DNA of 64,000 nt from Escherichia coli (GCF_024502345.1 NZ_JALDNN010000001.1), one strand, 5' to 3'; shown: positions 53,247-64,000, numbered from the stretch's first letter. Numbers and translations are program-made. The notes: generated from the sequence alone by a model not told the origin.

Positions 53247-54303
53247 GGCTTTGTTGAATAAATCGAACTTTTGCTGAGTTGAAGGATCAGATCACGTATC
53301 TTCCCGACAACGCAGACCGTTCCGTGGCAAAGCAAAAGTTCAAAATCACCAACTGGCCCACCTACAATAAAGCCCTCATCAACCGTGGCTCCATAACTTT
53401 CTGGCTGGATGATGAAGCTATTCAGGCCTGGTATGAGTCAGCAACACCTTCTTCACGAGGCAGACCTCAGCGCTATTCTGACCTTGCCATCACGACTGTG
53501 CTGGTCATTAAACGCGTATTCAGGCTGACCCTGCGCGCTGCGCAGGGCTTTATTGATTCCATTTTTTCTCTGATGAACGTTCCGCTACGCTGCCCGGATT
53601 ACAGCTGTGTCAGCAGGCGGGCAAAGTCGGTTAATGTCAGTTTCAAAACGCCCACCCGGGGTGAAATCGCACACCTGGTAATTGATTCCACCGGGCTGAA
53701 GGTCTTCGGTGAAGGCGAGTGGAAAGTCAAAAAGCATGGCCAGGAACGCCGCCGTATCTGGCGTAAGCTGCATCTCGCCGTTGACAGTAAAACACATGAA
53801 ATCATCTGCGCTGACCTGTCGCTGAACAACGTTACGGACTCAGAGGCCTTCCCCGGGTTAATCCGGCAAACCCACCGGAAAATCAGGTCAGCCGCCGCCG
53901 ATGGCGCTTACGATACCCGGCTATGTCACGATGAACTGCGGCGTAAGAAAATCAGCGCGCTTATCCCTCCCCGAAAAGGTGCGGGTTACTGGCCCGGTGA
54001 ATATGCAGACCGTAACCGTGCAGTGGCTAATCAGCGAATGACCGGGAGTAATGCGCGGTGGAAATGGACAACAGATTACAACCGTCGCTCGATAGCGGAA
54101 ACGGCGATGTACCGGGTAAAACAGCTGTTCGGGGGTTCACTGACACTGCGTGACTACGATGGTCAGGTTGCAGAGGCTATGGCCCTGGTACGAGCGCTGA
54201 ACAAAATGACGAAAGCAGGTATGCCTGAAAGCGTGCGTATTGCCTGAAAACACAACCCGCTACGGGGGAGACTTACCCGAAATCTGATTTATTCAACAAA
54301 GCC
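53247..54303 (+). mobile_element. IS903-group element copy C, 9-bp TSD ATCCATTTC
   Basis: Terminal IRs at 53247..53264 and 54286..54303; ATCCATTTC at 53238..53246 and 54304..54312. Confidence 0.92.
53279..54247 (+). CDS. IS903-group transposase (322 aa), identical to copies A and B
   Basis: Identical translation. Confidence 0.9.
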   Translation: MKDQITYLPDNADRSVAKQKFKITNWPTYNKALINRGSITFWLDDEAIQAWYESATPSSRGRPQRYSDLAITTVLVIKRVFRLTLRAAQGFIDSIFSLMNVPLRCPDYSCVSRRAKSVNVSFKTPTRGEIAHLVIDSTGLKVFGEGEWKVKKHGQERRRIWRKLHLAVDSKTHEIICADLSLNNVTDSEAFPGLIRQTHRKIRSAAADGAYDTRLCHDELRRKKISALIPPRKGAGYWPGEYADRNRAVANQRMTGSNARWKWTTDYNRRSIAETAMYRVKQLFGGSLTLRDYDGQVAEAMALVRALNKMTKAGMPESVRIA

Positions 54304-55202: not shown

Positions 55203-56138
55203 GTTGCTGGTTCTTTTACTTTGAGAGATTTTAATTGATGGGTATTGTTTCTACGACAATAAAGTTTTGACAAAGAAGCAAATAAAATGCATATCTTTCG
55301 ATTGTCACACATTGGAATATCGACAGAGCATTGATGATATTACGCAAAATATATTGCAGCCAAGTGAACTGACATTACGATCGAACACAAATGCAACATG
55401 ATGGATACTACCATTACATGTCGAGCTTGATTTTCCGTTTATTTCACGATTATCTCTTGATATTAACAGCTACGGACTTTTAAACAGATAAATCTCCCCG
55501 TACATCACCACAATATTATCCTTCGAAGTCCCGCAAAGCTCCGAAATATTTCGCGTCATTGGCCCTGAAAGCAATATCAAGACAGTGGGCAAAATAGCTT
55601 TCCTGACTGAGTTCACTGTGGGATGCAAATAAAGTTTCATCCTAACCCTAAAAACAGAGAGAAACGTCGCGCGCTCTCCTATTCATAAAAAATCCCTTTT
55701 ATATCAGTATGTTGTGAGCACTTACACCCGAGACTGGATCGTTTTGCCTTTCATGGGAGAATGATTAAGGGCGCTAAAGTATCATCCTAATTTTCGCCCA
55801 GGCTCGAAAAATACGGTAAATGGTGAAAATAAAGATTCATCCTTTTCCGATGTTGCCCGTTCCAACACGTAAGCAGTCAGTCAGAAAAAACACATAGATC
55901 CAATCCCTAGCGAGCATTGAGCTCTCTCATCCGTGCCAACTGCTCCAACCCTTGGACGCCCTAAATGCTTACCCAAAAAAATCAACACCTTCTTTTAAAA
56001 ACACAATCAAAAATGACACCCTTATATCCATTTAACCTAAACAGCCTTCCCCCCACTGCACTAGCTAGGGCTCGTAGTTCGGCGCAAGGCTGAAGTCGCT
56101 TGGCTGCTTCGCTGTGCAGATCCATGACCCACTTTCCA

Positions 56139-57302
56139 TCAAACTCCCGGTTGTAGTTCCACAAGCATCTCGCGAGTCTTGCCGGCCCGCTCCACTAACA
56201 AGACCACAACATCTCCAACGTTCTTGTCGTCTAGCCGGGCCTGTAATGTGGTGACGTCGTCGACGGCGATACCGTCGATGCTGATAACGCGATCGCCGGG
56301 CACGATGCCGCCTGCGGTGACCTCGACGCCGACGAGCCCGGCCCTGTGCGCCGCCGAGCCCGGCGTCACGCGCAATACGAATACGCCCTTACTGCCGGTC
56401 AGCGCCTGCAGACGCGCGTTGAGCTGCTCATCCACCTCGATGCCCAGCGCCGGACGGATGTACTTGCCGGTCTTTATGAGTTGCGGCACCACGCGCATGA
56501 CGGTATCGACCGGCACCGCAAAGCCGATGCCGGCCGAGGCGCCAGACGGACTGTAGATGGCGGTATTGATGCCGATCAGCCGCCCAGCCGAATCGAGCAG
56601 CGGGCCACCGGAATTGCCGGGGTTGATAGCGGCGTCGGTCTGGATCAGGTGGTCAATGGCCGGGCCACTGGCGTCGCCGGAAAGGGTGCGGTCAAGCGCC
56701 GAGACGATGCCGGTGGTGAGCGTCCAGTCGAGCCCGAAGGGATTGCCAATGGCAAAGACCTTTTGCCCCACCTTGAGATCGGCACTGGTGCCCACCGGCA
56801 CCGCCGGCGGGCGCTTGAAGCCGACGCCAATCTTGAGTACCGCGATGTCGTGCGCAGGACTAGCGCCAACGAGCGCAGCCTGATAATCGCGACCGTCGGC
56901 CAGTTTGACCGTGGCAGACGATGCCCCCTGGATCACGTGGAAGTTGGTCACCACGTGGCCGGCATCGTCCCAGATGAAGCCGGAGCCGGTGCCGCGCGGC
57001 ACGGAAAAGACATTGCGCGACCAGACGTGACGCACTAGTTGTGCCGTGGTGATGTAAACCACCGACCCGCGCGATTTCTCGAACAGCTCGATGGTGGTTT
57101 TTTCGTCGGCGGCCAGGTCGCCGCGCGGCGTCACCGTGCGCTCCTGCGTTTCGTGGGGACTGAACCAGGCTTCGATGGCGGGCAGGAACTGCCACAGCAG
57201 CATGAGTGCGGCGATGCAGCCAGTGATGACGAGCCAGCGCCGGATGAAGCGGTCCGGCGCCGGGCGGCTGTAGGGGTCGGGGTAGGTCACGTCATTCTCC
57301 AT
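56139..57302 (-). CDS. HtrA/DegP-family serine protease with PDZ domain (high-GC)
   Basis: Trypsin-like motifs ...TNFHVI..., ...GNSGGPL...; C-terminal PDZ-like region. Confidence 0.8.
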   Translation of the reverse strand: MENDVTYPDPYSRPAPDRFIRRWLVITGCIAALMLLWQFLPAIEAWFSPHETQERTVTPRGDLAADEKTTIELFEKSRGSVVYITTAQLVRHVWSRNVFSVPRGTGSGFIWDDAGHVVTNFHVIQGASSATVKLADGRDYQAALVGASPAHDIAVLKIGVGFKRPPAVPVGTSADLKVGQKVFAIGNPFGLDWTLTTGIVSALDRTLSGDASGPAIDHLIQTDAAINPGNSGGPLLDSAGRLIGINTAIYSPSGASAGIGFAVPVDTVMRVVPQLIKTGKYIRPALGIEVDEQLNARLQALTGSKGVFVLRVTPGSAAHRAGLVGVEVTAGGIVPGDRVISIDGIAVDDVTTLQARLDDKNVGDVVVLLVERAGKTREMLVELQPGV

Positions 57303-57309
57303 GTTGAAA

Positions 57310-58299
57310 TCAGCGCCAAAGGCCGCCGGTGCGCCAGCGTGGCGGACGTGGTGATACGGTCACCTCGGGGACGAAACGGGCCGATGGAAACGGCGGCATC
57401 GCGGGCGGCGGAGCAAGTTCCAGCAAGCGCTCAATGCGTTCAGCCGTCGCCGGATGCGTGCGCAACCAGGAGGGTTCCGGATTGCCCCATCCGGGCAGCA
57501 GCCAGGCGCGCCAGGAGCGGCTCACCCGCTCGATCTTGGCGAGCGCCGAGGCCAGCCCGTGCGGGTCGCCGGTCAATTCGGCAGCGAGCCGGTCGGCGTC
57601 GAATTCGCGCACCCTGGACAAGCCCAACTGAGCCAGCAAGGCCAGCTGTGGCGCGACCGCCAGTAGAAGCAACGCGGGCCAATTGACTTCCGCGACTCCA
57701 AGCAGCAGCGCTGGCAAGCTGAGCACGATCGCAAGCTGCCCCAGCAGGGCCAGCAGATGGGTCAGCCGGCTGATGGAATCGGCCAGGCCCATGACACGCA
57801 AATCCTCGTTCGCAATATGCGCGATTTCGTGGCCGAGCACGCCGGTCAACTCGCGGGGCGTGAGGCTACGCAGCAGGCCGTCGGTCAGCGCGATGGCCGC
57901 GTGATGCTTCGAACCGGTGGCGAAGGCGTTGACGACCCCGCTGGGCACGTAGTGCGGTACCGGCACGGCAGGCAGCCCGGCCCGCGCCGCCAGTTCGCGC
58001 AACACAGCCCAAAGATCGGGCGCTTCATCCGGGTACAGGGGGCGTGCGCCATACAGCCGCAAGGTCAGTCCGGAGGCGGCCGCCGGTTCGAGCAGCAGGG
58101 TGAACCCCGCGGCCGCAAGCGCCAGCCACAGCCCGCCGTCACCCAACAGCAGGCTGCCAGCGACGGCGGCAATCCCGAGCAGGGTCAGCACCAACAGCGC
58201 GGTTTGCAGGCGATTGAGCCAGCGATGCCGCGCGCCGACATCCTGCGCGTGGCGCAGATCACGACTGATCATCTGAGCGTTCCCCGGCGGTCCGGTCAT
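57310..58299 (-). CDS. M48-family zinc metalloprotease (HtpX-like)
   Basis: HEIAH zinc-binding motif in GHEIAHIANED; TM segments. Confidence 0.75.
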   Translation of the reverse strand: MTGPPGNAQMISRDLRHAQDVGARHRWLNRLQTALLVLTLLGIAAVAGSLLLGDGGLWLALAAAGFTLLLEPAAASGLTLRLYGARPLYPDEAPDLWAVLRELAARAGLPAVPVPHYVPSGVVNAFATGSKHHAAIALTDGLLRSLTPRELTGVLGHEIAHIANEDLRVMGLADSISRLTHLLALLGQLAIVLSLPALLLGVAEVNWPALLLLAVAPQLALLAQLGLSRVREFDADRLAAELTGDPHGLASALAKIERVSRSWRAWLLPGWGNPEPSWLRTHPATAERIERLLELAPPPAMPPFPSARFVPEVTVSPRPPRWRTGGLWR

Positions 58300-58762
58300 C
58301 GCGCTCGCGCAGCAGCCAGTAAGTCACCCCGAGCGCCAGCGTAGCACCTGCGAGCGCGGCGATCTTGCCGGGGCTCGCCTCGGGGTCGAGGATCACGAAC
58401 TTGCGCGCCAGCGCGATCAGGCCGATGAGGATCACCGTCTTGACCTGGATGATGCTGTCCCGACGCAGCGCCACGCGCACGATGGAATGCTTGAATTCCA
58501 TGGCGATGAGCAGCGTCATGATCATGGCGAACACGGTCTGGAAGACCTTGTGATCAAGCGGATTGAACGCGTCGAGGATCAGCAGCGTGAAGACAATGGA
58601 CATGAGCTGGAGCAGCGACACCACGATGATCACGGCGATCACCGCAGACAGCACGAGCGCGATGACCTGCTCGAAGCGCTCGTAGAACGTCATCACGGCC
58701 CATTGGGCGCGAAAAGTTTTCGTCAGCGTAGGTTGCTTTTCATTCATCGCCATTTCCCTCAA
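58259..58762 (-). CDS. PsiE-like phosphate-starvation-inducible membrane protein (start uncertain)
   Basis: Small polytopic membrane protein resembling PsiE. Confidence 0.55.
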   Translation of the reverse strand: MREMAMNEKQPTLTKTFRAQWAVMTFYERFEQVIALVLSAVIAVIIVVSLLQLMSIVFTLLILDAFNPLDHKVFQTVFAMIMTLLIAMEFKHSIVRVALRRDSIIQVKTVILIGLIALARKFVILDPEASPGKIAALAGATLALGVTYWLLRERDDRTAGERSDDQS

Positions 58763-59610
58763 TTTACATTGGCAACCATAACTTGGTTGCGCCCTTGTCT
58801 TTTTGCCTGGTAGAGCGCGCTGTCCGCCTGCTGCATCACCTGCTCGGAAGAGTTTAAGCGGACGTCGAGGGGAGCCACCCCCATGCTGGCGCTATAGCTG
58901 ATCGACACCTCTCCACACACCAGCGCTGTCGCCGCAACGTCCTGACGAAATCGCTCCGCCCATACTTGGGCGTCTTCTATCGATGCCGCTTCCAACAACA
59001 CAGCGAATTCCTCCCCCCCCCCAATCCGTGCAGCCATGTCGGTTGCGCGAACATGTTCCCTCAACCGTGAAGCAAAGTGCTTGAGCACCTCATCGCCGCA
59101 TCCGTGCCCATAGGTATCATTGATGCGCTTGAAGTGATCGATATCGCAGAGCACAAGTGCTGCTTGTATCTCCGGGCTGCGTTTGAGGCGCGCCCATTCC
59201 AGCTGTAATCGTTCGTTAAAAGCCCGCCGGTTCGACAAGCCGGTCAAGGGGTCGGTGATCGCCATGCGCAGCAACCGCTGCTCCATTTCCTTGCGAGAAG
59301 AGATGTCGAGCAGAGTGCCCACCATCAATTGCCTGCCCGTGTCACCCAGCCAACGACCGCGATCCAGCACCCAAATCCAAACGCCGGATCGATGACGAAC
59401 GCGGTACTCGCACTCCAATCGCTCCGACGGATTTTCTTGGTAAGCGCGCACCTTTGCCAGAACGACCGGTAAATCCTCCGGATGAATACGCGCTTGCCAT
59501 GCGGCATGGGTGGCGCCAATCTCCTCGTCGGAGGTCAAGCCGAACATCGCCAGACTGCGGGCAGAAAGCCTGAAGCTGTCGGTGGCAAGATCCCACTCCC
59601 AGAATCCCAA
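58759..59610 (-). CDS. PAS-GGDEF diguanylate cyclase
   Basis: GGEEF active-site motif (RIGGGEEF) and N-terminal PAS-like region. Confidence 0.8.
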   Translation of the reverse strand: MGFWEWDLATDSFRLSARSLAMFGLTSDEEIGATHAAWQARIHPEDLPVVLAKVRAYQENPSERLECEYRVRHRSGVWIWVLDRGRWLGDTGRQLMVGTLLDISSRKEMEQRLLRMAITDPLTGLSNRRAFNERLQLEWARLKRSPEIQAALVLCDIDHFKRINDTYGHGCGDEVLKHFASRLREHVRATDMAARIGGGEEFAVLLEAASIEDAQVWAERFRQDVAATALVCGEVSISYSASMGVAPLDVRLNSSEQVMQQADSALYQAKRQGRNQVMVANVN

Positions 59611-59779
59611 CTCTGCGCCTTCCAGGGCGATGGCGATCCGTTCGTTGTCGTCGATTTTCGCTTGTTGGCGATGCTTCAGCTCGTCACGCCTGTGGCGATT
59701 GGTACGAGCAAAACGCCATAACGCAACCCCATGCCAACATTGGCAAGTAGCGACACCATCAGCCAGATGGTCGGCCCGT

Positions 59780-61498
59780 TCATGGTCTATCCCCGCCTGA
59801 CTGACTGAGTGCCTGCCGTAATTCCTCGATCCGGTGGTCGACTTGGTCGGCGTTGATGCCCAACATCAACAGTACCTGCTCGGCCAGTCCCAGTCCCGCA
59901 GCCAGGTACAACGGGTACAGTCTGACATTGGGCAGATTACGCAAAAGCTGGGCATCCGTTACGCGCTCAGTGGCCACCACCACGGACAAGCTCAGGCGGC
60001 GGTCGAGAACCGCCTGAGCGATACGCAGGGCCGTCTGCGGACGGGCAAACGTCAGCACCACCAGGCGGGCATGGGCCAATCCGGCGGCGGCCAGGGTGTC
60101 GAGCCGACTGGCATCGCCATACGACACCGGCGCCCCCATAGCACGCCCCGCTTCGACCCGTTGGCGGTCCGATTCCAGCAGCAAATGCGGTATGCCTGCC
60201 AGGCGCAGCGTTCGGCTCAGCAGCAGCCCGACGTCATCCGCCCCACAGATGATCACATGGTCGCGCAACGACCGCGCCCGCTCGGCGACTTCGCCTTCTT
60301 CGGCCTGCGGTGGCTGACCGAGTGCGCCCGAGCGGCTGAAAGCCCGCGCCCATCGGTCATGGTGTCGGATCAGGAGCGGTGCCAACCCCATGCTCAACAC
60401 CAGCGCCACCAGCATCGGTTGCACCATGGTGGCGGCGATCAGGTGCTGCTGCATGACCATGCCCAGGAGCAGCAGCGCAAACTCGCCGCCATGACCCAGC
60501 ACGATGCCTGCGCGCCAGGCGTCGAGCGCCGACAGGCGGGTTGCGCGCAGCGCCAGAAAGTTCAGCCCCATCTTGAGAGGCACCAAGGCCAACAGCCAAC
60601 CCAGTACCGCCAGCGGTGCGGCCACGATCTGCGCGGTGTCCAGCTGCAGGCCAATGGTCACGAAGAACAGGCCCGACAGCACATCACGAAAGGGCTTGAG
60701 GTGGCTTTCCATGTGGTGCCGGAAGTCGCTCTCGCCCAGGACCATGCCGGCGAGAAAGGCCCCCAGGGCGGCGGATACGCCGACGGCGTGTGCAGCAGCG
60801 GCTGCCGCCACGACCACGCACAAGGAGACCAGCACGAAGGATTCTTCGTGGCCCTGCCGCGCCACCCAGCCCAGCAGGCCATGCAACAGACGACGCGAGG
60901 CAACCGCCGCTGCCGCGAACAACACCAGCACGCCCAACACTTCGAGCAGCACGCTCTCGATCTTCGGCGAGTCGCCGCGCGCCCAGATCGCCAGCAGGGC
61001 CAGCAGGGGCACGCTGGCCAGGTCCTGAAAGACCAGCACGGCGATGGCACTGCGGCCGTGGCGGGTGGTGAGCTCGCCTTGGTCGGCCAGCTGTCGGCTG
61101 ACCAGCGCCGTGGACGACATGGCCGCTGCGGCGCCGAGCAGTGCAGCGCTCTGAGCTGGCTGACCCAACCCGATCAGCACCAGGGTCAGTGGCGCGGCCA
61201 CGACGACCATCTGCAAGCTGCCGGACGCCAGTACGGTCTTGCGAGTGAGCCAGAAGTGCCCCAGCGAGAATTCCAGTCCGACCATGAACAGCAGCAGGGC
61301 CACACCCAGTTCGGATATGAAAGTCAACGCCTCTCCCGGCGCGATCACACCGCTGACCGAGGGGCCCAGCAAGGCGCCGACGGCGAGGTAACCCAGCAAG
61401 GCGGGTACTCTGAACGCCGCCGTCGCCACCACCGAGAGGCTGCACGCCGCCAGCAGGATCAGGGTAGTGCCGAGCAAATCCTGCGGATTCCACGCCAT
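59780..61498 (-). CDS. CPA2-family monovalent cation:proton antiporter with C-terminal RCK/TrkA-N domain (KefB/KefC-like)
   Basis: 12-TM N-terminal domain plus Rossmann-like ...VIICGADDVG... Confidence 0.8.
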   Translation of the reverse strand: MAWNPQDLLGTTLILLAACSLSVVATAAFRVPALLGYLAVGALLGPSVSGVIAPGEALTFISELGVALLLFMVGLEFSLGHFWLTRKTVLASGSLQMVVVAAPLTLVLIGLGQPAQSAALLGAAAAMSSTALVSRQLADQGELTTRHGRSAIAVLVFQDLASVPLLALLAIWARGDSPKIESVLLEVLGVLVLFAAAAVASRRLLHGLLGWVARQGHEESFVLVSLCVVVAAAAAAHAVGVSAALGAFLAGMVLGESDFRHHMESHLKPFRDVLSGLFFVTIGLQLDTAQIVAAPLAVLGWLLALVPLKMGLNFLALRATRLSALDAWRAGIVLGHGGEFALLLLGMVMQQHLIAATMVQPMLVALVLSMGLAPLLIRHHDRWARAFSRSGALGQPPQAEEGEVAERARSLRDHVIICGADDVGLLLSRTLRLAGIPHLLLESDRQRVEAGRAMGAPVSYGDASRLDTLAAAGLAHARLVVLTFARPQTALRIAQAVLDRRLSLSVVVATERVTDAQLLRNLPNVRLYPLYLAAGLGLAEQVLLMLGINADQVDHRIEELRQALSQSGGDRP

Positions 61499-61586
61499 TC
61501 GGACACTCAGCCCACGCTGATCCGGACACCTGTTCCACGGCCATTCGGACAGGCAGTCGGAGCGCAGCGACGCAGGGGTTGCATTG

Positions 61587-62342
61587 TTAGTCTGAGGTGC
61601 CCGGTGTCGTCAATTTCTTCACCCGCTTTCTCATCGATTCGCCCTTGAGGTTGATCCGATAAGCGTTGTGCACCAGGCGGTCGAGGATGGCATCGGCCAG
61701 GGTTGGATCGCCGATCAGTTCGTGCCAGTTGTCCACGGGCATTTGGCTGGTCACGAGGGTCGAGCGCTGGCCGTAGCGGTCGTCCAGTAGCTCCAGCATG
61801 TCGCGGCGCTGTTCGGCGGTGAACGGCGCCAGGCCCCAGTCGTCGAGGATCAGCAGGTCGGTCTTGGCGTAGCTGCTCATCAGCTTGGCGAAGCGCCCGT
61901 CGCCGTGGGCTAGGCCCAACTCTTCCAACAGGCGCGGCAAGCGCAGGTAACGCACGCTGTAGCCCTCTCGGCAGGCCTGGTGTGCCAGGGCGCAGGCCAG
62001 CCAGGTTTTACCCACGCCAGTCGGACCGTTGATGATCAGGTTGAGTCCGTCGCGCAGCCACTGGCCGCTACCCAGTTGCAGGATCAAGCCCTTGTCCAGC
62101 CCGCGCGGGGCACGGTAGTCGATGTCTTCGAGGCAGGCGCTGTGCTTGAGCCGGGCCTGGCGCAGGCGGCTGCTGAGGCGCTTGTCGTCGCGTTCGGTCA
62201 GTTCGCGGTCGACCAGCAGGCCGAGGCGTTCCACGAAGCTCAAGCTGTCGATGTCCGGGGTTTTCAGTTGCTCGGCGAGTGCCTTGAGCATGCCGGTCAG
62301 GCGCAGGGTCTGGAGCTTGTCCAGGGTCGGATGGGGCAGCAT
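61587..62342 (-). CDS. istB: IS21-family helper ATPase IstB
   Basis: Walker A NGPTGVGKT; start taken at MLPHPTLDKL. Confidence 0.85.
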   Translation of the reverse strand: MLPHPTLDKLQTLRLTGMLKALAEQLKTPDIDSLSFVERLGLLVDRELTERDDKRLSSRLRQARLKHSACLEDIDYRAPRGLDKGLILQLGSGQWLRDGLNLIINGPTGVGKTWLACALAHQACREGYSVRYLRLPRLLEELGLAHGDGRFAKLMSSYAKTDLLILDDWGLAPFTAEQRRDMLELLDDRYGQRSTLVTSQMPVDNWHELIGDPTLADAILDRLVHNAYRINLKGESMRKRVKKLTTPGTSD

Positions 62343-62359
62343 GGTGGGATTCCTTGTGT

Positions 62360-63889
62360 TTAGTGGTAGTAGCCGGGGCCGCGCAGGTTGGCGTGGTCGT
62401 CCGGCAGCAGGGGCAGGTGCTGCTGGGCCAGCGGCAGATTTTCCAGCCCCTGGCGCAGGATCGATTCGAGGCTCTTGTAGCTGCACGCACCGAGGCTGAG
62501 GGCGCGACGGCAGGCCAACTCCAAGCACACTTCGCCATGGGTCTTGCCCAGGCGCAGGATGCCCAGGCAGGCCCGGTAGCCTTGGGTTGGGTGGATGCGC
62601 CGTTCGAGGATGTGGCTGATCACGCCGGCCGTGTTCGGCCCGGTCTGCTCAGCCCAGCGGATCAGCCGTTGTGGCGTCCACTCGGCGTGCTCGCGATGGC
62701 TCTTGGGCATGTGCTCGGCCTGTGTGCTGTGCCGGCCCTTGTGCGGTGAGCGAAGGTGGCTGGCCACCCGCTGATTGGCGTGGAAGCACTCCACCGTGCG
62801 CGCTGTCAGGCGTACTTCCAGTTGTTTCTTCACCAGTTGGTACGGCACCGAGTAGTAGTGCCCATCGACCTCGACGTGGTAGTCGATGTGCACCCGCGCC
62901 TTCTTCCACTCGGCATAGACGTAGGGCTGCTCCGGCAGTGGGCGCAGCGCTGGACGATCCAGGGCTTCGAAGGCCGAGTGCCGGGAGCCCGGCAGCTTGC
63001 GAAACGGTCGTCGGTTGAGCCGCTCCAGCAATAAGGCGATGGCGCTGTTGAGTTCGTCCAGGGAGAAGAACTGGCGGTTCCTCAGCGCGGCGAGGATCCA
63101 GCGCTCGACCACCTGCACGCCGACCTCGGCCTTAGCCTTGTCGCGCGGCTTACGCGCCCGCGCCGGCACCACCGCCACGCCATAGTGCTCGGCCAGATCG
63201 CGGTAGCTCGGGTTGATGTCCGGCTCGTAGCGATGGCTCTTACTCACCGCGCTTCGCAGGTTGTCCGGCACCACGATCTCCGGCACACCGCCGAGAAAGG
63301 AGAAGCAGCGGGCATGTGAGCCCAGCCAGTCAGGTAACTGCTGCGACCAGGTGGCTTCGGCGAAGGTGTAGCTGGATGCACCAAGCACCGCGACGAACAC
63401 CTGCGCCTGGCGGATCTCGCCGCTGTGGCGGTCGATCACCGGCACCGTCTGCCCGGCGTAGTCGACGAACAACTTCTCGCCAACGCGATGTTCCTGGCGC
63501 ATCACCACGTCCAGCTTGCCCTGCCAGGCTCGGTAGTGCTCGCAGAACCAGCTGTACTGAAAGCCTTTCGGCTGGCTCAGGCGATACTCCTGCCAGAGCA
63601 GCGCCAAGGTCACGCCCGGCCGGCGTAGCTCGGCGTGGATCATGGCCCAATCGGGCAGCGGTCGTTGCTCGGAGGGTACCGCCGCCGGTGGCGGGAACAG
63701 CTGCTGCTCCAACTCCGCATCGGACAACGAACAGGGCCAACTGAGGCCGCTGGCGGCAAAGCGACAGAGGTAATCACCGGCACTGCTGTGGCCTATGCCC
63801 AGACTGCGGGAGATCTTACGGACAGACAGCCCGCAATCGAACTTGAGGCGCAACACCTCACGGATTTTACGCATGGACAAACGCTCCAC
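62360..63889 (-). CDS. istA: IS21-family transposase IstA
   Basis: N-terminal HTH then DDE integrase core; sits directly upstream of istB. Confidence 0.85.
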   Translation of the reverse strand: MERLSMRKIREVLRLKFDCGLSVRKISRSLGIGHSSAGDYLCRFAASGLSWPCSLSDAELEQQLFPPPAAVPSEQRPLPDWAMIHAELRRPGVTLALLWQEYRLSQPKGFQYSWFCEHYRAWQGKLDVVMRQEHRVGEKLFVDYAGQTVPVIDRHSGEIRQAQVFVAVLGASSYTFAEATWSQQLPDWLGSHARCFSFLGGVPEIVVPDNLRSAVSKSHRYEPDINPSYRDLAEHYGVAVVPARARKPRDKAKAEVGVQVVERWILAALRNRQFFSLDELNSAIALLLERLNRRPFRKLPGSRHSAFEALDRPALRPLPEQPYVYAEWKKARVHIDYHVEVDGHYYSVPYQLVKKQLEVRLTARTVECFHANQRVASHLRSPHKGRHSTQAEHMPKSHREHAEWTPQRLIRWAEQTGPNTAGVISHILERRIHPTQGYRACLGILRLGKTHGEVCLELACRRALSLGACSYKSLESILRQGLENLPLAQQHLPLLPDDHANLRGPGYYH

Positions 63890-64000
63890 GACGACCTCTC
63901 TGCTTCGAAAAAGAGGTCGATGGTAGTGAATAAATCCTGCGTAGCTGCCTGCCTGGAAAGTGTCCGGATGGCCGTGGAATCGGTGTCCGGATGCTCGTGG

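Follow-up and report, generated by a model that had tools for sequence, protein, structure and literature searches.

Left end of a Tn7-like transposon carrying the tLST/LHR stress island in Escherichia coli tla1

In a 64,000-nucleotide stretch of Escherichia coli DNA (hereafter the window), a GC-rich block fills the last 8 kb. We conclude, with a probability of roughly 0.93, that this block is the left end of a Tn7-like transposon that carries the tLST/LHR island and is inserted into the E. coli gene tla1. The element is already known and its acquisition is real and ordinary: no assembly error is involved, and the mobile element accounts in full for the conspicuous shift in composition. The features identified are listed in Table 1.

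Table 1. Features at the junction and within the GC-rich block, in window coordinates
Feature	Coordinates	Strand	Basis or remark
tla1 3' remnant, last ~33 codons (DUF4123, T6SS Tle1 chaperone)	55516..55616	-	mapped onto intact tla1
Left end of Tn7-like transposon	55617..55843	+	terminus TGTGGGATGCAAATAAAGTTTCATCC and three spaced TnsB-site-like repeats
Non-coding stretch, transposon end to degP-GI stop codon	55844..56138	.	holds the GC step (~56050)
degP-GI (LHR orf16), HtrA/DegP serine protease with PDZ	56139..57302	-	TIGR02037 1.3e-84; Pfam Trypsin_2/PDZ
M48/HtpX-like zinc metalloprotease (LHR orf15)	57310..58299	-	HtpX models ~1e-42, below equivalog cut-offs
psiE-GI (LHR orf14), PsiE-family membrane protein	58259..58762	-	weak NCBIfam 2.5e-07; Pfam PF06146
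tdcA / LHR2 orfE, PAS3-GGDEF diguanylate cyclase	58759..59610	-	283-aa ORF, TTG start
Original tdcA 5' end, remnant (MNGPTIWLMVSLLANVGM...)	59727..59783	-	three-frame translation against CF39S TdcA
kefB-GI (LHR orf13), CPA2 K+/H+ antiporter with TrkA_N	59780..61498	-	NCBIfam and comparison with uninterrupted tLST
CAAATCC, one copy of 7-bp target duplication	61475..61481	.	comparison with uninterrupted tLST and G3/10
IS21-family IS (ISPpu23-like), ~2596 bp	61482..64000, to ~64077	-	istB, istA, end repeats
istB	61587-62342	-	within the IS21-family element
istA	62360-63874	-	within the IS21-family element

The change in base composition is sharp. Computed in 1-kb windows, the GC content was 0.34 to 0.59 over 1–56 kb versus 0.59 to 0.68 over 56–64 kb, and in 100-bp windows it climbed from 0.36 (55950–56049) to 0.59 (56050–56149) and 0.70 (56250–56349). 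The segment values were 0.473 (1–55616), 0.415 (55617–56050), 0.642 (56051–61481), and 0.645 (61482–64000), and GC at third codon positions was 0.66–0.86 in the seven genes of the block versus 0.37 in the adjacent host gene tli1. For the LHR, a GC content of 61.8% has been published against 51.1% for the host (Mercer et al. 2015, PMC4563881), and the value found here for 56051–61481 is likewise close to 62% and well above that of the remainder of the window (0.473). The preliminary description of this DNA had reported a sharp GC change near 56.05 kb, which both the windowed and the segment values reproduce, and long ORFs open on both strands, of which the 604-aa ORF antisense to kefB at 59834–61648(+) is an example. 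Its placing of the boundary at the GC step has to be revised, as the true end of the element is at 55617, ~430 bp upstream. Because the boundary is there and not at 56.05 kb, the step is internal to the element, at the place where the AT-rich transposon end (GC 0.42) gives way to GC-rich cargo (0.64). The non-coding stretch in which it falls is part of a block common to other records at 99.9–100% identity from 55617 on, and the segment holding the step is contiguous in more than 1,000 records.

At 55617, a Tn7-type terminus, TGTGGGATGC..., starts and directly abuts the truncated tla1. Three putative TnsB-site-like repeats lie within 230 bp of this left end, at 55624–43, 55769–88, and 55824–43; their motif, AAAGNNTCATCCT, has three matches in the window, all at the left end, with 0.07 expected by chance. 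The earlier view that no terminal repeat marks the junction is incompatible with a Tn7-type end bearing three such repeats. The identical terminus abuts at least six different flanks, four of them on IS21-bearing copies, and the copies occupy many different sites; glmS was absent from the flanks examined. Different left-end flanks could partly stem from later rearrangements and not from independent transpositions.

On the host side, the flank stops inside tla1, which is cut by the insertion. As the intact reference we used tla1 of E. coli 23CRST027 (6167–6937 of the compared locus), and the uninterrupted site, GAGTTCAC^TGACTGC, is found in this strain and in further loci (L016–L024). The empty, intact site occurs in many genomes, one of which shares the flank at 99.9% identity. 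The sequence TTCAC at 55612–55616 is the predicted 5-bp target-site duplication, one side of which is visible in the window. The same filled junction is present in the draft assembly GCA_017173755.1, with 99.9% identity over 6.9 kb (4 mismatches and 2 gap openings), and this draft is without the IS903-like insertion (a 1,057-bp IS) of the window. This one draft has the junction; none of the 5,426 complete E. coli genomes does. The surrounding chromosome is rich in IS elements, with an IS903-like element in tle1 and ISAs1 remnants nearby. Look-ups of the junction-spanning ORF and of the two predicted truncated-Tla1 products gave no match and, being dependent on exact matches, are uninformative; the same applies to exact scans of metagenome contigs, which returned 0 matches to the predicted right-end junction and 0 to the observed left-end junction. 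Looking up the neighbouring 108-aa gene gave intact sites only and did not reach the right-end junction.

What the window holds of the tLST/LHR is its distal "oxidative-stress module": kefB-GI, tdcA/orfE, psiE-GI, the M48/HtpX protease, and degP-GI, each encoded on the minus strand. Gene order and identity are those of the tLST distal module and the protein families were confirmed, such that the gene assignments made earlier (DegP/HtrA, HtpX-like M48, a weak PsiE, PAS+GGDEF, CPA2/KefB-C-like, IstB, and IstA) all stand. In their annotated forms, degP-GI (by the start annotated in G3/10), the M48/HtpX-like protease, and psiE-GI encode 383 aa (56139–57290), 320 aa (57310–58272), and 162 aa (58259–58747), respectively. 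Positions 55617–61484 (5.87 kb) are 99.9% identical to the tLST of Klebsiella, Enterobacter, Citrobacter, Salmonella, and E. coli in records of both plasmids and chromosomes, where the block runs on to trx-GI, hdeD, yfdX1/2, hsp20-GI, cls, and clpK. The dna(orf1)-shsp20-clpG/clpK core would lie beyond 64000 and is present in the 100%-identical element of G3/10. Outside the enterobacteria, the closest relatives of the cargo are in Pseudomonas-group genomes, and the proposal that the DNA is foreign, recently acquired, and of high-GC-proteobacterial origin is supported. According to the 2021 review (PMC8290217), it is chlorine tolerance, not heat tolerance, that requires the oxidative module, and KefB-GI is reported to act at alkaline pH with chlorine; the function of the module in this strain would follow that literature. 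Scanning 55–64 kb against Rfam at the gathering threshold gave no match.

The tdcA gene of the window has an unusual form. Its 283-aa product is identical to G3/10 KGM61397.1, a protein listed at 98.2% in Supplementary Data 1 of Almblad et al. 2021 (PMC8012707), and the identity to TdcA of P. aeruginosa CF39S is 98.2%, above 93%, when aligned from residue 59 on, in a setting syntenic with the LHR. The protein falls short of the full length of 342 aa, starts with TTG, and has an extra Gly that turns the canonical RxGGEEF motif into RIGGGEEF. In the remnant of the original 5' end, the tdcA ATG and the stop codon of kefB share bases (ATGA), and a 1-nt frameshift after codon 18 puts the hydrophobic N-terminal segment out of frame with the 283-aa ORF. 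As judged from its sequence, the TdcA of the window is an ortholog by descent and possibly an impaired allele.

The IS21-family element has the two genes of its family, istA for a DDE transposase and istB for an AAA+ helper, both above the NCBIfam cut-offs (NF033546, 311.6 bits, cut-off 160; NF038214, 278 bits, cut-off 200). Repeats of the type CCACG-N5/6-CGGACA match the window five times, with 0.05 expected: three are at 61490–61551 and two of five are visible at 63961–64000. The preliminary description had suggested looking for IS21 terminal repeats beyond 64000, and the far end is indeed predicted there, at ~64077; its position, ~77 bp past the window end, is taken from the 100%-identical copy in G3/10. 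So delimited, the element has the termini TGCGGATTCCACGC.../...GCGTGGAATCCGCA (TG...CA), three plus five repeats, and a 7-bp duplication, the second CAAATCC copy being predicted at ~64078–64084, just beyond the window. The first five codons of kefB-GI (61484–61498) come from the IS21 end, giving MAWNPQDLLG... instead of MQDLLG..., and an index of public assemblies has this exact hybrid KefB-GI protein in 585 blocks. Among the 5,426 complete E. coli genomes, a near-identical IS is single-copy and at the same position in all four carriers. Copies interrupted by the IS21-family element were seen in at least four sites, including tla1 here and a UvrD-helicase-domain gene in G3/10. No paper treating tLST or LHR together with IS21 was found in the searchable literature.

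The complete carrier is seen in E. coli G3/10, to which positions 55617–64000 of the window are 100% identical. In that strain, the element is 29,080 bp long and flanked by the 5-bp target-site duplication CCAGT, and it sits in a truncated UvrD-helicase-domain gene beside an ATP-dependent nuclease gene; a 5-bp duplication was also found in four miniature relatives. The tLST is followed by TnsE, D, C, B, and A, in which Pfam recognized Tn7_TnsA-like_N/C, Mu-transpos_C, AAA_22/TniB, TniQ+TnsD, and TnsE_C. NCBIfam returned no family for TnsA, C, D, and E and a sub-threshold IS481-transposase match for TnsB; as it gave no match above its cut-offs, the Tns assignment rests on Pfam and the RefSeq annotation. 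The TnsA endonuclease, the TnsB DDE transposase, the TnsC AAA+ regulator, and the target selectors (TniQ/TnsD and TnsE) are those of the G3/10 copy, with their genes outside the window. The G3/10 right end, which adjoins tnsA, is a 25/26 inverted copy of the left end and has three repeats at 20-bp spacing. The left end of the window and the right end of G3/10 form an imperfect TGT...ACA inverted repeat, and the repeats are asymmetric, spaced in the former and tight in the latter.

The preliminary description had left two explanations open, a contig chimera and an IS21-associated acquisition. That the assembly fused two unrelated DNAs near 56 kb would fit the abrupt GC step and the absence of the junction from the complete genomes (0/5426), but the breakpoint falls on the very first base of a Tn7-type end, whose limit is identical in at least six other contexts, the host side breaks off in a gene also known uninterrupted, and the GC step is 430 bp inside the segment contiguous in the more than 1,000 records. 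An identical junction, part of what that description said would rule out a chimera, is present at 99.9% in GCA_017173755.1, which was assembled independently and differs elsewhere. With the terminus at the breakpoint, the junction in the second assembly, and the empty sites in near-identical backgrounds, the chimera is refuted, and we regard its chances as negligible. Scarcely better are those of an IS21-family element having brought in the GC-rich block, whether by itself or within a composite or cointegrate. Members of this family can form cointegrates, and a complete istA-istB pair adjoins the stress genes and shares their high GC; against this, the IS has a 7-bp duplication of its own inside kefB, the tLST continues on its far side in G3/10, each genome has one IS, at this position only (4/5426), and the limits of the block are free of a second copy. 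The outer boundary of the block is a Tn7-type end and not an IS21 end, and it is shared by uninterrupted tLST without the IS. Internal to the cargo, the IS is a passenger; the vehicle is the Tn7-like transposon.

Less far-fetched, and still unlikely, is that the left end is genuine but belongs to a truncated or rearranged relic, perhaps lacking tns genes or the right end after an IS-mediated deletion, or that the element came together with its flank from another strain by homologous recombination and did not transpose in this lineage. The left 8.4 kb alone is visible, the chromosomal region is IS-rich (the IS903-like element in tle1 and the ISAs1 remnants), truncated tLST variants are common (PMC8290217), and exact look-ups did not find the predicted right-end junction. 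These failed look-ups need exact matches and are hence uninformative, however, and the visible 8.4 kb is 100% identical to the complete element of G3/10, while the GCA_017173755.1 contig has room for the full 29-kb element.

Under the reading that we prefer, a tLST-carrying Tn7-like transposon in tla1, the element would have transposed by cut-and-paste into the chromosomal tla1, in the T6SS Tle1 effector module, with TTCAC as the expected 5-bp duplication. The identical copy in G3/10 suggests that the present copy is complete and has that duplication. Beyond the window end one would expect the heat-shock part of the tLST (trx-GI, hdeD, yfdX1/2, the sHSPs, an ftsH remnant, cls, and clpK), then tnsEDCBA, and the predicted right end ...GCATCCCACA (...CTTTATTTGCATCCCACA), with TTCAC and the 5' portion of tla1 behind it. 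The ISPpu23-like IS inserted later, between trx-GI and kefB-GI at kefB codons 4–5, with its 7-bp duplication. As the IS end supplies a new in-frame ATG, KefB-GI is kept with four extra N-terminal residues. Transcription from kefB through degP would now depend on read-through from istAB or on an IS-borne promoter. A promoter and terminator scan of 55.5–64 kb yielded not one sigma-70-like site, and its terminator-like sites did not outnumber those in shuffles, a result that says nothing on expression downstream of the IS.

We tentatively propose that the Tn7-like carrier, and not the flanking IS elements or plasmids commonly held responsible, may still move the whole tLST between E. coli chromosomal sites without attTn7, and that the IS21 insertion may have cut the chlorine-tolerance module off from the promoters of the island and given KefB-GI a new start, a regulatory variant present in hundreds of assemblies; we consider this combined proposal somewhat less probable than its opposite. 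The tLST/LHR enables E. coli, Klebsiella, Salmonella, and Cronobacter to withstand heat, pressure, and chlorine as applied during food processing and at hospitals and wastewater plants, and spotting the island in a genome has practical meaning. For specialists, the analysis documents the exact ends of the Tn7-like carrier and its target duplication, a new insertion site at which the T6SS Tle1 chaperone gene tla1 is inactivated, and a widespread IS21-interrupted variant, with a hybrid KefB-GI start, that is absent from the searchable literature.

Compared with known systems, the carrier, as seen complete in G3/10, resembles Tn7, the prototype heteromeric-transposase element (TnsABC+D/E), in its TGT...ACA termini, the 5-bp target duplication, the TnsA, TnsB, TnsC, TnsD(TniQ), and TnsE domains, and the three spaced left repeats and tightly packed right repeats next to tnsA. 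It differs from Tn7 in its diverged end sequences and proteins, with no NCBIfam match above cut-off, in a cargo that is a stress island and not an integron, and in that no examined flank is glmS. The passenger has the marks of the IS21 family and the ISPpu23 group, namely istA and istB, TG...CA termini, five istA-side and three istB-side repeats, and a 7-bp duplication, but its closest relatives, Pseudomonas plasmid copies, are only 92–96% identical, and it may therefore be an isoform or an unnamed relative. Like the Tn7-like transposon of P. aeruginosa CF39S (PMC8012707), a carrier compared here by its gene content, the present element has LHR-syntenic cargo with tdcA downstream of kefB. Unlike CF39S TdcA, the E. 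coli allele misses the first ~58 residues through the 5' frameshift (283 versus 342 aa), has its GGEEF motif lengthened by the extra Gly, and differs at the C-terminus. The LHR/tLST described earlier (Mercer et al. 2015, PMC4563881; Boll et al. 2017, PMC5383660; Kamal et al. 2021, PMC8290217) agrees in genes and order at 99–100% nucleotide identity, in a GC content of ~62–64%, and in being flanked by mobile elements, whereas the IS21-family element between trx-GI and kefB-GI is particular to the form seen here. LHR2/tLST2 is matched by orfE here and by cls in the identical G3/10 copy; in contrast to the classical LHR2, the G3/10 copy is without the orfC/orfD (MscS) insertion and its ftsH is truncated, and it is therefore a mosaic of tLST1 and tLST2 features.

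The sharp change in composition near 56.05 kb that the preliminary description reported is real: in 1-kb windows, GC content was 0.34–0.59 over 1–56 kb versus 0.59–0.68 over 56–64 kb, and in 100-bp windows it rose from 0.36 (55950-56049) to 0.59 (56050-56149) and 0.70 (56250-56349). GC3 was 0.66–0.86 in the seven genes of the block, compared with 0.37 in the adjoining host gene tli1. Long spurious ORFs were confirmed as well, being antisense as is usual in GC-rich DNA (e.g., 604 aa at 59834-61648(+), opposite kefB), and NCBIfam upheld the proposed gene list, with a DegP/HtrA-family protease, an HtpX-like M48 protease, PAS+GGDEF, a KefB/C-like CPA2 antiporter, IstB and IstA (both over the cut-offs) and a weak match to PsiE. 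The junction, however, is not at the step. All database matches place the start of the shared segment at 55616-55618, approximately 430 bp upstream, with the boundary sequence TGTGGGATGCAAATAAAGTTTCATCC at 55617, and among the loci fetched the same terminus joins at least six unrelated flanks, four of them on IS21-bearing copies. As the terminus is identical against these different flanks, the GC step is internal and marks the passage from an AT-rich transposon end (55617-56050, GC 0.415) to GC-rich cargo (56051-61481, 0.642; 61482-64000, 0.645) just past the degP-GI stop; the GC content of 1-55616 is 0.473.

The core AAAGNNTCATCCT recurs 145 and 200 bp further inward from the terminus, and its three copies in the 64-kb window, against 0.07 expected, are all at the transposon end. 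The sequenced probiotic strain E. coli G3/10 carries a 100%-identical copy over 55617-64000. There, genes with the annotations TnsE, TnsD, ATPase, Mu-type transposase and TnsA come after the tLST, and in them Pfam found TnsE_C, TniQ+TnsD, AAA_22/TniB, Mu-transpos_C and both TnsA domains, and an inverted copy of the terminus (25/26 bases) with three repeats spaced 20 bp adjoins tnsA. The G3/10 element is 29,080 bp long and has a perfect 5-bp duplication, CCAGT, on both sides. With its inverted ends, Tns genes and target-site duplication, it shows the hallmarks by which Tn7-like transposons are defined; the boundary in the window is thus the left (cargo-side) end of such an element. From knowledge of the Tn7 family, TnsA and TnsB would excise the element at its TGT/ACA termini, TnsB would bind the end repeats, TnsC would connect it to TnsD/TniQ or TnsE as target selector, and a 5-bp duplication would arise on insertion. 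The variety of insertion sites seen argues against one attTn7-type site in E. coli. In G3/10, the transposon is bordered on one side by a hypothetical gene and on the other by a truncated UvrD-helicase-domain gene, which adjoins an ATP-dependent nuclease gene; a type I restriction-modification system is nearby, and the setting presumably resembles an insertion into a Gabija-like defence locus.

Features of the window and of the compared genomes, with their coordinates
Feature	Coordinates	Length	Details
thrW island	~1-25000		integrase-bearing; at tRNA-Thr (thrW)/proA
IS903-group IS	53247-54303	1,057 bp	interrupts T6SS phospholipase effector gene tle1
tla1 remnant	55516-55616	last ~33 codons	DUF4123, Tle1 chaperone; host sequence breaks off at 55616-55618
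GGDEF ORF	58759-59610	283 aa	identical to G3/10 KGM61397.1
IS21-family element	61482 to 64077-equivalent		starts TGCGGATTCCACGC...; ends ...GCGTGGAATCCGCA, 77 bp past the window, read in G3/10
Surroundings of the transposon in E. coli G3/10	L002 19052-20000; L005 1899-4131		L002 and L005, loci of G3/10
Miniature elements, Pseudomonas alcaligenes NBRC 14159	L044 6614-6941; L045 3549-3876		
Miniature elements, P. oleovorans DSM 1045	L054 662-988; L055 4188-4515; L056 8834-9160		

The foreign block had been ascribed to either an assembly chimera or an IS21-associated acquisition. Left of the junction, the window follows the E. coli chromosome from the thrW/proA-adjacent island through proB, frsA, pepD and fadE to the T6SS Tle1 module. 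The intact site, GAGTTCAC^TGACTGC, is common to many genomes, one of them with a flank 99.9% identical to the window, and the filled junction was absent from all 5426 complete E. coli genomes. It is nevertheless present base for base in a 100-kb contig of GCA_017173755.1 (L025), which is 99.9% identical over the junction-spanning 6.9 kb and lacks the IS903-like insertion in tle1, and therefore represents another strain, assembled independently. The recurrence of the junction in a related genome and the coincidence of the breakpoint with the exact transposon terminus settle the matter against a chimera. The right end of the insertion would lie ~20 kb past the window end, with TTCAC as the predicted duplication; targeted exact-match look-ups for that side gave no match.

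While the general idea of recently acquired foreign DNA holds, IS21 was not the vehicle. Collinearity with the uninterrupted tLST breaks at 61481-61484, and comparison with G3/10 places a 7-bp duplication, CAAATCC, on both sides of the IS, the insertion point being codons 4-5 of kefB-GI. CCACG-N5/6-CGGACA repeats number three on the istB side (61490-61551) and five on the istA side (two in the window, 63961-64000), giving five matches in the window against 0.05 expected. Near-identical copies were found in only four complete E. coli genomes, once per genome and always at the kefB-GI position; the closest relatives are ISPpu23-like copies on Pseudomonas plasmids (92–96% identity). Having its own duplication within kefB-GI and a single fixed position, the IS21-family element is a passenger picked up by the cargo. 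Its end provides an in-frame ATG, so that the KefB-GI ORF now starts MAWNPQDLLG... versus the original MQDLLG..., and precisely this hybrid protein has index entries in 585 public-assembly blocks. As gene orientation is uniform from trx-GI across istA and istB as far as degP-GI, the distal module could be driven by read-through from the IS; a simple promoter scan found no promoter-like site.

The tla1 gene is a previously unlisted insertion site of the tLST carrier, and a side effect of the insertion is the loss of the Tla1 C-terminus. The IS903-group element in tle1 has 18-bp inverted repeats, GGCTTTGTTGAATAAATC, and a 9-bp duplication, ATCCATTTC, and is absent from L025 and L023 (another draft assembly), which are otherwise 99.9% identical. 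With tla1 cut by the transposon and tle1 split by the IS, this strain has a decayed Tle1 effector module. The core-chromosome part (28000-52000) shows at most 97.7% identity to the best full-length matches among the 5426 complete genomes, whereas L023 and L025 match its adjoining flank at 99.9%; coverage of the host lineage by complete E. coli genomes seems poor. The thrW island, 99.9% identical to one in E. coli PSJ-29, carries arsC, CP4-57-like genes (yfjQ, GTPase) and genes for WYL/HTH regulators, a SIR2-family protein of 1,291 aa and several large hypothetical proteins. Within it lies the low-GC stretch at 19–24 kb, and it may represent a defence island.

In P. aeruginosa CF39S, Almblad et al. 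describe TdcA as a thermosensory diguanylate cyclase of PAS3-GGDEF architecture, borne on a Tn7-like transposon that shows synteny with the LHR, and they give the G3/10 protein KGM61397.1 as a homolog of it with 98.2% identity (PMC8012707). In three-frame translation, the original tdcA start is still there (MNGPTIWLMVSLLANVGM), with an ATG that shares bases with the stop codon of kefB (ATGA), and is separated from the remainder by a 1-nt frameshift past codon 18. The annotated ORF consequently begins at TTG, without the hydrophobic segment at the N-terminus. There is an additional Gly in the active-site motif (RIGGGEEF versus RIGGEEF in the characterised P. aeruginosa protein), the C-terminus also differs, and copies elsewhere in E. 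coli (e.g., loci L009, L010, L012 and L025) are split further into 210-aa and 80-aa ORFs. At the sequence level, these changes suggest ongoing decay of tdcA in E. coli.

Among species-representative genomes, 22 stretches contain an exact match to the 26-nt left end, mostly in Pseudomonas-group species but also in Pantoea, Solimonas, Lysobacterales and Halioglobus, and in five of the 22 tLST distal genes lie inward of it at 87–99.6% identity. Pseudomonas TdcA orthologs are 93–100% identical (PMC8012707). Together with the ISPpu23-like IS, the left-end distribution and these orthologs support a high-GC proteobacterium as the probable source, in keeping with the resemblance noted in the preliminary description. 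Two Pseudomonas genomes contain several copies each of miniature elements, ~328 bp long, that have the same Tn7-like terminus in inverted orientation at their two ends, with three spaced TnsB-site-like repeats in one half and two packed in the other, and 5-bp direct repeats at four of the five (CCCGC, GAAGT, ACCGC, TGCGG). Judged by these features, they resemble non-autonomous, MITE-like derivatives of the same Tn7-like family.

The block is a known and well understood stress-tolerance island, horizontally acquired on a Tn7-like transposon. Segment 55617-61484 is shared at 99.9% identity by numerous plasmids and chromosomes from Klebsiella, Enterobacter, Citrobacter, Salmonella and E. coli, and in an annotated K. 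quasipneumoniae plasmid the block runs straight into trx-GI, hdeD, yfdX2, yfdX1, hsp20-GI, cls and clpK. The content of the window is thus the distal 'oxidative-stress module' of the tLST, consisting of kefB-GI (orf13), orfE, psiE-GI (orf14), the M48 protease gene (orf15) and degP-GI (orf16), and the heat-resistance genes proper (sHSPs, ClpK) would fall past the window end. The published GC content of the LHR is 61.8% versus 51.1% for the host (PMC4563881). KefB-GI is protective at alkaline pH when chlorine is present, and orf14, orf15 and DegP-GI are little characterised (PMC8290217). The presence of orfE is characteristic of the LHR2/tLST2 type (PMC5383660, PMC8290217), and orfE is found in the window too.
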